Positions 3,486 to 22,661 of a stretch of DNA of 64,000 nucleotides are shown one piece after another (position 1 is the first letter of the stretch; each line of letters starts with the position of its first letter). The stretch lies in sequence record OP778609, one strand, 5' to 3'. The position numbers and the translations under genes were made by a program. The notes beneath the pieces are model-generated. The model was given only the letters and a program-made list of their open reading frames with translations, searched no databases and was not told where the DNA came from. The DNA comes from Escherichia phage A73.

Positions 3486-3857
3486 TTGAGCGAGTATACT
3501 TACAAGTTGTCAGTTGGTAGGCGTGGTGTGGTTATGACTATCAACATGATTAATGAGAGTGCGGAGGCTGTGAAGTGGTGGGCCTCCACCTTCAACGGGA
3601 AAGGTTTTACTTTATCGCGTCATAAGATTGAATCAGGAAAGCCGATAGATCTTGTCAAGGAGGACACTTTCTTGTATCCTGATCGTATCAGTGATGAAGA
3701 TATTGATTTCCTGTCCGCTACGGTTGGTAGTCTGTTAGATGAGGAGCCAGATATTGTAAGGTTGCTCTCTTTGCTTTCCGCAATGTGGTCAGCAGGTCAT
3801 GATGAGGAAAGTATGCATACGATGGTAAGGAATACGTTGAGACGTTGGTCTAAGTAA
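3486..3857 (+). CDS. hypothetical protein (123 aa)
   Basis: TTG start 6 nt after strong RBS AAGGAGG; no motif. Confidence 0.5.
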   Translation: MSEYTYKLSVGRRGVVMTINMINESAEAVKWWASTFNGKGFTLSRHKIESGKPIDLVKEDTFLYPDRISDEDIDFLSATVGSLLDEEPDIVRLLSLLSAMWSAGHDEESMHTMVRNTLRRWSK

Positions 3858-10616: not shown

Positions 10617-10644
10617 TTGACAATAGTTTTTAGTACTGTATAAT
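10617..10644 (+). promoter_or_regulatory. sigma70 promoter TTGACA-16-TATAAT with leader hairpin
   Basis: followed by hairpin GGGGAGAATAGTTCTCCCC (about 10657-10675) then RBS AAAGGA. Confidence 0.65.
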
Positions 10645-10695
10645 ACATTACATCAAGGGGAGAATAGTTCTCCCCACATCAAAGGAATCAAAACA

Positions 10696-10931: not shown

Positions 10932-10959
10932 TTGCAAAGTAAGTCGGATAAAGTATAAT
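10932..10959 (+). promoter_or_regulatory. sigma70 promoter TTGCAA-16-TATAAT with leader hairpin
   Basis: hairpin GGGGAGAAATGATTCTCCCC (about 10972-10991). Confidence 0.6.
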
Positions 10960-11008
10960 ACATTACATCAAGGGGAGAAATGATTCTCCCCACTAAAAGG
11001 AAACTAAA

Positions 11009-16720: not shown

Positions 16721-16999
16721 ATGACTATTACTAAATTATCCACCGAAGAGATCACCAACATTCTGACTACTAATCTTGAAGATTGGAAGCGTGAAGCTGA
16801 TTTGCAAGCAACCTGTAAGCTGAATACAGAGCTAACATCAGACGATATTGAAACGATCGTCCATGCTGATTTCTATGATGCTTTGCATGATGATTCTATC
16901 ATCCTTGAAACGATGCTAGATAATGCCTGGATTAATCCCGATTTGGCGGCGTATGGTCGTAGCACCTTTATCACTATCCACAATATTTATAACCGTTAA
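16721..16999 (+). CDS. hypothetical protein, paralog A (92 aa)
   Basis: about 50% identical to ORF 17671 (MTIxKLSTEEI..LTTNLExWKREAD..ITIHxIYN). Confidence 0.6.
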   Translation: MTITKLSTEEITNILTTNLEDWKREADLQATCKLNTELTSDDIETIVHADFYDALHDDSIILETMLDNAWINPDLAAYGRSTFITIHNIYNR

Positions 17000-17126: not shown

Positions 17127-17154
17127 TTGACGGCAATTAATAATCTGGTAAAGT
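17127..17154 (+). promoter_or_regulatory. sigma70 promoter TTGACG-16-TAAAGT with leader hairpin
   Basis: CACGTAAG start; hairpin GGCGGCAATAGCGCCGCC (about 17167-17184). Confidence 0.6.
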
Positions 17155-17201
17155 GTACCACGTAAGGCGGCAATAGCGCCGCCATTAAAGAGATAAACGA
17201 A

Positions 17202-17670: not shown

Positions 17671-17949
17671 ATGACCATCGCCAAATTATCCACCGAAGAA
17701 ATCGAACAAGTGTTAACTACTAACCTGGAACAATGGAAACGTGAGGCAGATATACAATCAGCAAAATGGCTTAACGAGAAGTTAACACCGGATGATCTGA
17801 GTAAGATTATAGATCCTCAATTCTATGAAGATATTCACGACACGGCGTTATCCGTTGAGGATGTACTCGATAAGCATTACATTGCTACTGATTTGCAGGT
17901 TTACGGGCGTAAAAACTTTATTACTATTCACGACATTTACAATAACTAA
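17671..17949 (+). CDS. hypothetical protein, paralog B (92 aa)
   Basis: paralog of ORF 16721. Confidence 0.6.
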   Translation: MTIAKLSTEEIEQVLTTNLEQWKREADIQSAKWLNEKLTPDDLSKIIDPQFYEDIHDTALSVEDVLDKHYIATDLQVYGRKNFITIHDIYNN

Positions 17950-18538: not shown

Positions 18539-18567
18539 TTGACGTTCGCCAGGTGAGCGGGTATATT
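18539..18567 (+). promoter_or_regulatory. sigma70 promoter TTGACG-17-TATATT with leader hairpin
   Basis: CACGTAGG start; hairpin GCGGCAATAGTGCCGC (about 18580-18595). Confidence 0.6.
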
Positions 18568-18616
18568 TTATCACGTAGGGCGGCAATAGTGCCGCTCACT
18601 GACTGGAGCTATCATT

Positions 18617-19039: not shown

Positions 19040-19067
19040 TTGACACGGATCGTCAATATGCTAATAT
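19040..19067 (+). promoter_or_regulatory. sigma70 promoter TTGACA-16-TAATAT with leader hairpin
   Basis: CACGTAGG start; hairpin GCGGCAATATCGCCGC (about 19080-19095). Confidence 0.6.
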
Positions 19068-19122
19068 TTATCACGTAGGGCGGCAATATCGCCGCTCACC
19101 CCTTAAAAGAGCGAGATCTAAA

Positions 19123-19338
19123 ATGGCGTTAACAAAACAAGAAATCATCGACCGCATCAAAGAGTCAACTGGCGAGAATATTGGTAATGGTTTAATTGTT
19201 AAAGTTCTTGATTATTCAAATAATCCCCTGGCACCGGAACCAGTGGCTTACAAATTATCCTGGATATCCGTATTTAGTGGTAAGCGTACAAGATGCGTAT
19301 ACTATCCGAACACCGTGGGGCGTCAGTACTGTAAATAA
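19123..19338 (+). CDS. hypothetical protein (71 aa)
   Basis: ATG downstream of promoter and hairpin. Confidence 0.5.
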   Translation: MALTKQEIIDRIKESTGENIGNGLIVKVLDYSNNPLAPEPVAYKLSWISVFSGKRTRCVYYPNTVGRQYCK

Positions 19339-19398
19339 AGGGCACTTTAATATTAATAAGGGGCGGCAACGCCCCAGGTCAACCAAAGGGAAACAACA

Positions 19399-19605
19399 AT
19401 GAGTATTGCAATGATTAGCTCATCCGACATTAAAAAGGCTTTATCTGTATTGCGCTATCACCATAGAAGGAAGGTAATCAATGACGAGAGCTATCTAGAT
19501 TCATCGTTAGAAAGCGATACGTTGGAAGCCATTTCAAAATTATCTGATTTGCATAAACGCATGACCGAAAGCAACCGATCCGACTTCATAGGGGGCGAAA
19601 TATGA
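19399..19605 (+). CDS. hypothetical protein (68 aa)
   Basis: ATG with AAAGGG RBS; starts MSIAM like next ORF. Confidence 0.5.
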   Translation: MSIAMISSSDIKKALSVLRYHHRRKVINDESYLDSSLESDTLEAISKLSDLHKRMTESNRSDFIGGEI

Positions 19606-19862
19606 GTATTGCAATGTTAATCAATACCGTAGAAGAGGCGAAAGCATTAAAGTTACGTGTTGAACTGATTGATCAACCAGGTGGAGATCTCCTTGTACAA
19701 ATCTATCCCCCAAAGGATGATTCTGGCGCTTATGATTGGTGCTACTCTGACACGTTCGAACAAGTAGACATTAAAGCAATAACATCATTTATCAACAGGG
19801 CTATACTTGAGCAAACGATAGAACTTAACGGGATGTTAAAAACACCCTGGCACATTTACTGA
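19602..19862 (+). CDS. hypothetical protein (86 aa)
   Basis: ATGA overlap with upstream ORF. Confidence 0.5.
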   Translation: MSIAMLINTVEEAKALKLRVELIDQPGGDLLVQIYPPKDDSGAYDWCYSDTFEQVDIKAITSFINRAILEQTIELNGMLKTPWHIY

Positions 19863-19873
19863 GTTCGACAAAA

Positions 19874-19900
19874 GGGCTTGACTTGTTCAGCCCTTTTTTG
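19874..19900 (+). terminator. rho-independent terminator
   Basis: GGGCT..AGCCC stem followed by TTTTTT. Confidence 0.7.
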
Positions 19901-20026
19901 CTATTCTTATCAAACGGGCGGCACCTGGGAACAGGGGGAGGTAATCACTGGACGACTCCGCTATACAGTGATAGTAAATAGCTATCAATAATCTCCAAAA
20001 ATAAAATAAAACCTATCGAGTCTTTA

Positions 20027-20055
20027 CAATTCTTTCTGTTGACACAACAACCGCA
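20027..20055 (+). promoter_or_regulatory. sigma70 promoter TTGACA-17-TATTAT driving an ORF-free transcript
   Basis: no ORF longer than about 10 codons between 20062 and 20340. Confidence 0.5.
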
Positions 20056-20341
20056 TTACAGTATTATTTATCTCGTAGGGCAGCGAAGCAGTGATGTAAA
20101 GTAGTTACTCTATGATGTAAGTTCTGAGAAGTCGAATCCGATAAAGTATCAGAAAGTTTCTAAGTTTTCGAATCGTCCAGATGAAAAAGGCTGGCAAGTG
20201 TTGAGAAAGGGCACGTTGAGTAAGTCCTGAACAGGGGCGCTCCTAGACACCTTCTACTGAGATTGCGATCGAAGTGTTAAACTGTGAGAAACAAAAGAGC
20301 GCTAGGAAAGAAAGAAACAAGAAAAGAAGTTAAAAAGATTG

Positions 20342-20370
20342 TTGACACAAAAGTAAGTTGTATACTATTA
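20342..20370 (+). promoter_or_regulatory. sigma70 promoter TTGACA-17-TATTAT
   Basis: followed by CTCGTAGGGCA start and ORF 20416. Confidence 0.5.
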
Positions 20371-20415
20371 TATCTCTCGTAGGGCAAACATTCAAAACAT
20401 CAAAAAGGGTACAAA

Positions 20416-21609: not shown

Positions 21610-21638
21610 TTGACACCTGCTAATCATTCCTTTAATAT
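21610..21638 (+). promoter_or_regulatory. sigma70 promoter TTGACA-17-TAATAT
   Basis: followed by CTTGTAGGGCA start. Confidence 0.55.
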
Positions 21639-21689
21639 GTACCTTGTAGGGCAAGCAATAACGCAAGCCCATAAATAGGACAAACTATC

Positions 21690-21887
21690 ATGACCATCGC
21701 TAATGAACTGATCGCTGTATTGAATGAAGCCAAATCTAATCAGATCGATGTACAGATCAAAGAATTGCCCAATGGCCTGATCGGTTGCACTTGCACCTGC
21801 TTCGGAAGTGACTACACAGAGGTAAGCTCTCTAGAATCTCTCATTCGTCACTTGAAATCAATAGTTGAAGATTGGAGAATCATCTAA
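21690..21887 (+). CDS. hypothetical protein (65 aa)
   Basis: ATG with AGGAC RBS; last gene of + block; followed by hairpin GGGGCCGCAATAGTGGCCC. Confidence 0.5.
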   Translation: MTIANELIAVLNEAKSNQIDVQIKELPNGLIGCTCTCFGSDYTEVSSLESLIRHLKSIVEDWRII

Positions 21888-22503
21888 TCAACCAGGGGCC
21901 GCAATAGTGGCCCTTGTCATATCCATCGGCGTGACTCTCCCAACTCTATTAATCCCTTCCCCATTTGGATCATCATAACTTACCTCATCTAATCATTAAT
22001 CTAATCCCCTTTGGAATCTCTCCCCCACAAATCTAAACTAATCTGATAGCTTACCATAACATAATCCACAAAGAAAGAACTATTTTGCCCACAATGAAAG
22101 GCAGTTTTAAAGAGATACCATTGCCAGAGTATGGAGGTGGCGCGACCGTAGGGAGCGACACTATAAAACGAGTATACCCCTCCTACCGCTATGCGGTCAT
22201 CGGTGATAACCGATATCGTTACACGCTATCTGTTCTCTTCGTTTCCTCGTTTTATAGTGTCTATATGTAGTAATCTTTTATTCTTTGTCAATACATTATC
22301 GAAGATAATATTGAATTATTTAATGCTTTGTTATTCATATAAAGTGAATAGCTAGTCAATAGGAAGGCCGTTAGTGTGACCACACAAAGAGGCTATGCAC
22401 CACAAAGAGAGGCCGTACTTGCCCACAAAAGGAGCAAACAAGCAAGGCGGTACGCCAGTTTGCTAATGAGCGTAGCTCTTTTGCTAGACAAAACTCTCTT
22501 CTC

Positions 22504-22661
22504 TCTTCTTTCCCAAAATAAATTTTTTCTTGCTTTTATTGCCAGAGTATGGCGGGGGGAATGTTGAAAAAATAGATCTTGACTGGTCAACATACGATAC
22601 ATCCTATCTTCTTTCCCAAAATAAATTTTTTCTTGCTTTTATTGCCAGAGTATGGCGGGGG
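22504..22661. repeat. two perfect 55-bp direct repeats spaced 103 bp apart
   Basis: TCTTCTTTCCCAAAATAAATTTTTTCTTGCTTTTATTGCCAGAGTATGGCGGGGG at 22504-22558 and 22607-22661; related partial copy TTGCCAGAGTATGGAGGTGG near 22120. Confidence 0.85.

Follow-up and report, generated by a model that had tools for sequence, protein, structure and literature searches.

The stretch of DNA analyzed here (the window) comprises 64,000 nucleotides of Escherichia phage A73 (sequence record OP778609). It belongs to an E. coli myovirus of the Vequintavirinae, and its nearest records by identity are A5-4 and A7_1 (95%), UPEC06 (93%) and LTH01 (93%). Within a plus-strand block of small function-unknown genes sit two adjacent genes, here called A and B, in which the stop codon of A overlaps the start codon of B in an ATGA arrangement (19602 to 19605). 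With the start sites of A and B that we infer from the sequence, the features of the locus are as follows.

19040 to 19068, plus strand: sigma-70-like promoter of the promoter-plus-hairpin family (TTGACA, spacer of 16 to 17 nt, TAATAT; 10/12 consensus matches)
19078 to 19095, plus strand: promoter-proximal hairpin GGGCGGCAATATCGCCGC, which has the 9-nt GGGCGGCAA in common with the hairpin at 19360
19123 to 19338, plus strand: variable cassette gene of 71 aa, phrog_16587
19360 to 19375, plus strand: hairpin GGGGCGGCAACGCCCC, with a 6-bp stem and a GCAA loop; single exact copy in the window
19386 to 19391, plus strand: Shine-Dalgarno-like AAGGGA, 7 nt 5' of the ATG at 19399, as read from the sequence
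19399 to 19413, plus strand: head copy 1, consisting of 12 nt of B type (ATGAGTATTGCA) and an ATG (19411 to 19413) that is the putative ancestral start of the A family
19399 to 19605, plus strand: gene A, 68 aa, phrog_9599, with a clade-specific N-terminal extension of 4 codons
19590 to 19595, plus strand: predicted Shine-Dalgarno sequence AGGGGG for B, within the conserved C-terminal codons of A (..IGGEI*)
19602 to 19616, plus strand: head copy 2, the native start of B, with its ATG overlapping the TGA of A
19602 to 19862, plus strand: gene B, 86 aa, phrog_20600
19872 to 19899, plus strand: putative intrinsic terminator (AAGGGCT, 10-nt loop, AGCCCTT, T-run), kept in 4/4 relatives

The promoter at 19040 probably drives an operon of the 71-aa gene, A and B, and the terminator at 19872 to 19899 is the probable end of that operon; the terminator scanner missed it because its loop is longer than 8 nt. 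Neither A nor B had a Pfam match or a relative in the PDB by sequence, and the PHROG families of both are of unknown function. No Rfam family or tRNA match was found in the window. Beyond B, the ~550 nt 3' of the terminator (19863 to 20415) hold no open reading frame of at least 45 aa. They do contain two of the best promoter-like sites of the region (20039 and 20342, each 11/12), and in the relatives only tiny open reading frames, on either strand, are annotated there, again with no Rfam or tRNA match. This interval may encode small RNAs or micro-ORFs.

The original prediction held that the frames beginning at 19399 and 19602 share their first 15 nt and then diverge, and this is what we found. 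The sequence ATGAGTATTGCAATG has two exact plus-strand copies, at 19399 to 19413 and 19602 to 19616 (0 mismatches), each of which forms the first 15 nt of an open reading frame (A and B, respectively). The two starts are 203 bp apart, with exactly one gene between them. The base 5' of the copies is a in one case and t in the other, the bases 3' of them are ATT and TTA, and the 15 nt upstream of the two heads are identical at 8/15 positions, mostly in the Shine-Dalgarno G-run. The sole other near match of the 15-mer in the window, at 30364, has 2 mismatches and lies off any listed ORF start.

Could such a match be pure coincidence? The identity ends exactly at 15 nt, and the window contains 41 maximal direct repeat pairs of at least 15 nt, mostly promoter, hairpin or terminator motifs, both of which would suit a chance origin. 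A 15-nt repeat is thus not in itself rare in the window, but it is rare for one to fall in register on the start codons of two neighboring genes. Among the 7,626 pairs of starts formed by the 124 gene-like ORFs of the window, the second-longest common prefix was 11 nt, and the number of pairs dropped ~3-fold with each additional shared base. In addition, three independent facts described below argue for copying, namely, that A has a 4-codon extension, that an identical hairpin precedes B in phAPEC8 and that MSIA is native to B. Coincidence is a very improbable account, and these results showed that the repeat is not a product of chance. It had also been proposed that identity limited to the 15 nt, without flanking similarity, would point to chance; the confinement is real within the window, but other phages reveal common descent behind it.

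Evidence of that descent came from the families to which A and B belong. Gene A matched the phrog_9599 profile with an E value of 4.8e-29, its residues 7 to 68 falling on positions 2 to 63 of 63, such that its first four or five residues lie outside the profile; the alignment agrees. A tblastn search with A returned 200 phage records, including those of Vequintavirus, Justusliebigvirus and the jumbo Asteriusvirus 121Q, and among these 200 records the alignment ran from residue 1 only in members of one clade. All A homologues outside that clade, uncultured contigs included, are 63 to 64 aa long and lack MSIA. Met1 of the 64-aa homologues aligns with Met5 of the window protein, and the 63-aa members begin one column later (for example, MITESDIRQAL.. 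or MTSSEEIRKAI.. against MSIA-MISSSDIKKAL.. in the window). The four extra codons occur only in the clade, which consists of the window, A5-4/A7_1, UPEC06, LTH01 and Logan contigs L015 to L017 and L023.

Fourteen records named "Campylobacter phage," most of them 137 to 141 kb in size, also matched gene A, at 58 to 60% identity, as E. coli Vequintavirus genomes do (among them MG065646, MG065647, MG065653, MG065662, MG065672, MG065674 and MG065677). This suggests that they are rV5-like coliphage genomes under a Campylobacter host label.

In several relatives, the old start codon of A has been lost, being GCG in UPEC06 and L023 and ACG in L015 to L017, and the open reading frame from the new ATG is intact. 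Mutation of the old ATG within a frame that is intact from the new ATG implies that the new start is in use, and for UPEC06, L023 and L015 to L017 these sequences show the upstream ATG to be the apparent start of A. In this clade, A would therefore start four codons upstream of the usual start of its family. Gene A is unannotated, despite an intact 68-aa ORF, in A5-4 (2019 to 2225 of contig L001; ~86944 to 87150 of OP744025.1) and at the same place in A7_1 (OP795442.1), and it is uncalled on contig L023. The A protein of the window itself had no record in an exact-protein look-up.

Gene B presents the opposite picture at its N terminus. It matched the phrog_20600 profile (E = 2.4e-28) with residues 1 to 74 on positions 1 to 73 of 78, N terminus included. 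A tblastn search with B returned 63 phage records, from the four close relatives and from numerous Stephanstirmvirinae, phAPEC8 (gp250) and phi92 (gp244) among them. All B homologues open with MSIA or MTIA, even the distant ones (phAPEC8, phi92, L013, L014, P0017 and P0018), and the residue count from the start to the ..VELIDQPGG core is identical in all of them. In the family alignment, M1, I3 and A4 are invariant and S2 is nearly so. Codon 5 of B is ATG in all clade members and ACA (Thr) in phAPEC8, phi92 and the Stephanstirmvirinae.

The B locus of phAPEC8 resembles the region upstream of A in the window. There, B starts with ATGAGTATTGCAACA, and 20 nt separate its ATG from the hairpin GGGGCGGCAACGCCCC upstream; within the first 50 kb of the phAPEC8 genome, this is the sole exact copy of the hairpin, and ATGAGTATTGCA likewise occurs once. 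In phAPEC8 and phi92, AAAGGA/AAGGGA precedes B at the position at which AAGGGA precedes A in the window. An uninterrupted recipient site, with GGGGCGGCAACGCCCC, 20 nt, ATGAGTATTGCA and the B body in succession, is thus present in phAPEC8 and contigs L013 and L014, which belong to a different subfamily. The window has this hairpin 23 nt before the new ATG of A. Together, the hairpin and the MSIA comparisons imply that A of the window begins as B does in phAPEC8, with a 5' flank and first 12 nt that correspond to those of B; nucleotides 13 to 15 of A (ATG) would then correspond to the ancestral start codon of A. As far as sequences can tell, the family comparisons showed that copying ran from B to A, and they showed where the apparent junctions lie.

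Two side observations concern the B family. In phAPEC8, gp250 is flanked by near-identical hairpins, GGGGCGGCAACGCCCC upstream and AGGGCGGTAACGCCCC downstream (3550 to 3565 and 3832 to 3847 of contigs L004/L031), so that B looks like a hairpin-bounded cassette there. In the window, a 65-aa gene at 21690 to 21887 starts with ATCATGACCATCGC, which matches the start region of another gene, that at 17671 (MTIA..), exactly over 14 nt; the encoded protein is weakly similar to residues 7 to 29 of B (35% identity; E = 0.02 against a very small database), and the gene at 21690 may be a distant paralogue of the B family with an MTIA head like that of phi92.

The two family searches also bear on whether A and B are tandem paralogues that have diverged everywhere except at the N terminus. 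The genes are adjacent, both are small, they have MSIAM in common, and there is a weak KAL..LR likeness within their first 18 residues. Against this, BLASTP aligned only the head (E = 0.1), hhalign of the family alignments gave a probability of 0.9% over 6 columns, A homologues lack the head, and the distributions differ (200 records for A and 63 for B, overlapping only in this clade). The BLASTP and hhalign results effectively refute paralogy, and we give the idea hardly any credence.

The 3' end of A tells a complementary story. What now lies upstream of B, ..TTCATAGGGGGCGAAATATGA, is the conserved 3' end of A, coding for ..FIGGEI*. Across phages, this end adjoins at least four unrelated downstream gene families, represented by MIAITPTVLDWY.. 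/ MINTSSTVL..; by MIRFCHVMKNF.. / MIIFCNILKKY..; by MINQFGV..; and by B. A overlaps its next gene through ATGA in nimi, FKP3, Kashira, L025, L029 and L030, and in two further loci (KP2025 and L026) the next gene lies within 1 to 2 nt of the A stop codon. Since the end of A and its G-run are kept in front of different genes, A appears to supply the next gene, whichever it is, with a Shine-Dalgarno sequence and a start/stop overlap.

We then compared the heads among the relatives. The head of B is ATGAGCATTGCAATG in most of them and ATGAGTATTGCAATG in the window and L015, the difference being AGC versus AGT, which makes the exact 15/15 identity peculiar to this genome; the exact match needs no more than retention or one synonymous change. 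The heads of A are more varied (ATGAGTATTGCAGCG, ATGAGTATTTCAATG, ATGACTACTTCAATG and ATGACTACTTCAACG, with 11 to 13 of 15 matches to the B head), encode MSIAA, MSISM, MTTSM and MTTST and differ by both synonymous and nonsynonymous changes. The leader and head of A are the fastest-evolving segment of the locus: between the window and A5-4 they are identical at 27/38 positions (71%), and the gene bodies are 96 to 99% identical. In A5-4 and L015 to L017, the leader and head of A are far more diverged than the gene bodies, which a single recent event alone does not explain. In these genomes, the segment may have come, as a mosaic patch, from a more distant lineage in which A was already extended.

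This drift of the A head argues against a selected initiation element. The proposal that the 15 nt are such an element (a favorable 5' coding sequence or a repressor site that coregulates the two genes) could point to the position of both copies 6 to 7 nt from a G-rich Shine-Dalgarno sequence and to the AU-rich composition of the 15-mer, which contains the palindrome ATTGCAAT. However, the palindrome is not enriched in the window (4 found, 2.3 expected), the motif stands at no other gene start there, and the predicted folds of the two copies differ (with unremarkable z-scores of -1.5 and +0.8). In the relatives, moreover, the A copy changes at synonymous and nonsynonymous sites alike, evolution is faster in the leader and head of A than in the gene bodies, and the family comparisons account for the identity by descent. 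The conserved translation-initiation element of the original prediction was thus not borne out: within the window the motif is confined to these two starts, its A copy drifts even at the protein level, and the copies have no predicted RNA structure in common. We regard selection for such an element as quite unlikely.

The surroundings of A and B have themselves been rearranged. The 71-aa gene at 19123 to 19338 is absent from A5-4, A7_1 and L015 to L017, with the junction within the shared 9-nt GGGCGGCAA; in A5-4 and L015 to L017, the promoter-proximal hairpin runs directly into the hairpin at 19360. In UPEC06, LTH01 and L023, an unrelated 81-aa gene replaces the 71-aa gene between the same two hairpins. 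The 71-aa gene is a cassette polymorphism bounded by hairpins, and this shows that very short repeats serve as sites of recombination at this locus.

Such units recur in the region. Sigma-70-like promoters, each with ..CGTAGGGCGGCAA.. hairpins 3' of it, punctuate the small-gene block. The promoter-like sites lie at 17127, 18539, 19040, 20039, 20342 and 21610; each is followed by ..CGTAGGGC(G/A).., with a GC hairpin in three, and the repeated composites, often including a hairpin of the GGCGGCAATAGCGCCGC type, extend over 17127 to 17182, 18539 to 18595, 19040 to 19095, 20039 to 20082, 20342 to 20386 and 21610 to 21653. Similar "host dependent" and "PHIRE" promoters are annotated in the homologous region of phAPEC8.

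Other repeats were noted in the window. Two 92-aa genes ~1 kb apart (16721 to 16999 and 17671 to 17949) are clear paralogues (56% identity; E = 1e-36) that share 17 identical nt close to their starts (16733/17683). No repeat in the window is longer than a 55-nt perfect direct repeat, TCTTCTTTCCCAAAATAAATTTTTTCTTGCTTTTATTGCCAGAGTATGGCGGGGG, at 22504 to 22558 and 22607 to 22661 (103-nt spacing), with a third, partial copy at 22120 to 22134; it is located where the gene blocks switch between the plus and minus strands. A 27-nt perfect repeat, GTATAATACATTACATCAAGGGGAGAA, at 10638 to 10664 and 10953 to 10979 (315-nt spacing), contains a -10-like hexamer and a Shine-Dalgarno-like run.

Taken together, these results make it probable that the shared 15 nt are a recombination scar, in which the head of B was duplicated around an inserted A body. 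The ancestral locus would have resembled that of phAPEC8 gp250, with GGGGCGGCAACGCCCC, a leader of ~20 nt containing a Shine-Dalgarno sequence and then B from ATGAGTATTGCA (MSIA...). The body of the horizontally widespread gene A, normally 63 to 64 aa, would have been inserted behind the first four or five codons of B, bringing with it its own Shine-Dalgarno sequence and ATGA junction for the next gene. The left junction would be an ATG serving both as the start codon of A itself and as codon 5 of the B head, and the right junction would be the ATGA stop/start overlap of A; insertion between these two junctions leaves a B head on either side of A. In this way, A would have captured the hairpin, leader, Shine-Dalgarno sequence, start codon and four codons of B, gaining an N-terminal MSIA, and B would have kept an intact copy of its head, with its translation now coupled to the A stop codon via the G-run in the last codons of A. 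Of the short duplication that was suggested to have seeded a new gene start, the duplication and the new start are therefore upheld; no new gene arose, since it was the old and widespread phrog_9599 that received a start and a 4-codon extension, with B as the donor.

As for the mechanism, we favor microhomology-mediated illegitimate recombination or template switching between coinfecting phage genomes. The most economical course would be two template switches or crossovers, one at the ATG on the left and one at the ATGA on the right; that there was one event, or two, is something we infer. At the right junction, ATGA is common to the end of A and the start of B. At the left junction, the ATG is common to both only if codon 5 of B was by then a Met codon; the Stephanstirmvirinae have ACA there. 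Because codon 5 of B is ACA in phAPEC8 and phi92 and ATG in the clade, the left microhomology must be assumed to be older than the event, failing which codon 5 of B must have been converted or substituted later. Cassettes have demonstrably been exchanged at short repeats in the region that holds the locus, which is in favor of a scar.

We looked for the uninterrupted and excised forms of the locus. None of the close relatives proved to have an empty site, in which the hairpin, leader and head would lead into B with no A between them; all ~8 clade members carry A and B in tandem, and the sole uninterrupted form known is that of the other subfamily, Stephanstirmvirinae. An IMG/VR scan for the hairpin plus head returned only two phAPEC8-like contigs; the related-locus search with B returned the same two, and that with A returned none. 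Scans of the metagenome_contigs and viral_contigs sets with the B head and body found only an unrelated AT-rich membrane-protein repeat. Exact-protein look-ups added four further clade contigs, all with the A-B tandem. An excised form of A was likewise absent from the clade members and from the IMG/VR and JGI metagenome scans.

These searches bear on the possibility that the two heads have been kept identical, by gene conversion, as direct repeats for the excision and reinsertion of an A cassette in the manner of the PeSL mini-circles. The heads flank exactly one gene with a spacing of 203 bp, excision would give back a phAPEC8-like B locus, the adjoining 71-aa gene comes and goes between 9-nt repeats, A stands beside many different partners in other phages, and the B head of the window has AGT like the A head, where most relatives have AGC. 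On the other side, no excised form was seen in the clade members or the metagenome scans, the repeats have decayed to 11 to 13 of 15 matches in relatives, which implies that their identity is not maintained, and 15 bases are a poor substrate for homologous recombination. The B head of L015 also has AGT, next to a diverged A head, and the T of the window thus needs no conversion; with L015 sharing it, AGT in the B head of the window may be either ancestral or a product of reversion or conversion. We consider maintenance of the heads as direct repeats unlikely. Equally doubtful is the broader idea that A is a self-contained, promiscuous mini-cassette, with its own Shine-Dalgarno sequence and ATGA coupler, that enters the first codons of recipients by very short homology and for which the heads would be functional direct repeats allowing loss and regain. 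If true, a mobile A cassette would be a coding-sequence analogue of the PeSL mini-circles, spread across several phage subfamilies.

The recombination scar that we favor can be set beside several known systems. In the model associated with Hendrix and Hatfull, phage genomes reportedly become mosaic by illegitimate recombination, nonhomologous or at microhomologies, at gene boundaries, as in comparisons of HK97 and HK022 and of mycobacteriophages. As in that model, A is joined to its neighbors exactly at start and stop codons, by sharp junctions without extended homology, and stands beside different neighbors in different phages. Unlike in its standard form, the putative junction here lies a few codons inside the recipient B, and the head of B is duplicated, as a result of which the incoming A would have acquired a different start codon and four extra residues.

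Translational coupling through overlapping ATGA stop and start codons is general in bacterial and phage operons. The locus conforms to it in that the TGA of A overlaps the ATG of B, with a Shine-Dalgarno G-run in the last codons of A, and A is followed in the same manner by other genes in nimi, FKP3, Kashira, L025 and L029. Coupling would account for the expression of B now but not for the identical heads. Target-site duplication offers a further parallel, since an inserted segment lies between two short direct copies of recipient sequence, but here there is no transposase, terminal inverted repeat or mobile-element gene. Moreover, the duplicated 12 to 15 nt coincide with the ATG and ATGA microhomologies, which makes a template switch or double crossover likelier than insertion at a staggered cut.

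The closest parallel for the neighborhood is PeSL-mediated modular shuffling in T4-type phages (Arbiol 2010, PMC2839356; Comeau et al. 2014, PMC4122927). As in that system (PMC2839356), repeated units of a sigma-70-like promoter and a GC hairpin are found among the small variable genes around A and B, the breakpoints of the deletion and replacement of the 71-aa gene between close relatives fall in repeats (the GGGCGGCAA hairpins), and the neighborhood is a hyperplastic region of small function-unknown genes. It differs in that the 15-mer is coding sequence, the first five codons of two ORFs, without promoter hexamers or a hairpin, and in that the genome is one of the Vequintavirinae, not of a T4-type phage, with promoters and terminators that are predicted from sequence.

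Apart from the annotation and start points of A, the finding leaves known phage biology unchanged. It offers a compact, well-resolved example of how a phage can take up a further gene and leave its operon intact: the newcomer would take over the resident's ribosome-binding region and first codons, and the resident would keep a copy and be reexpressed by coupling. It also illustrates that a 15-nt repeat without flanking similarity can be a true scar of common descent, revealed only by genome comparison. Set against the known systems, the locus is a case of ordinary phage mosaicism combined with ATGA coupling in a PeSL-like hyperplastic region, in which the capture of a start is a neat detail and not a new kind of system.
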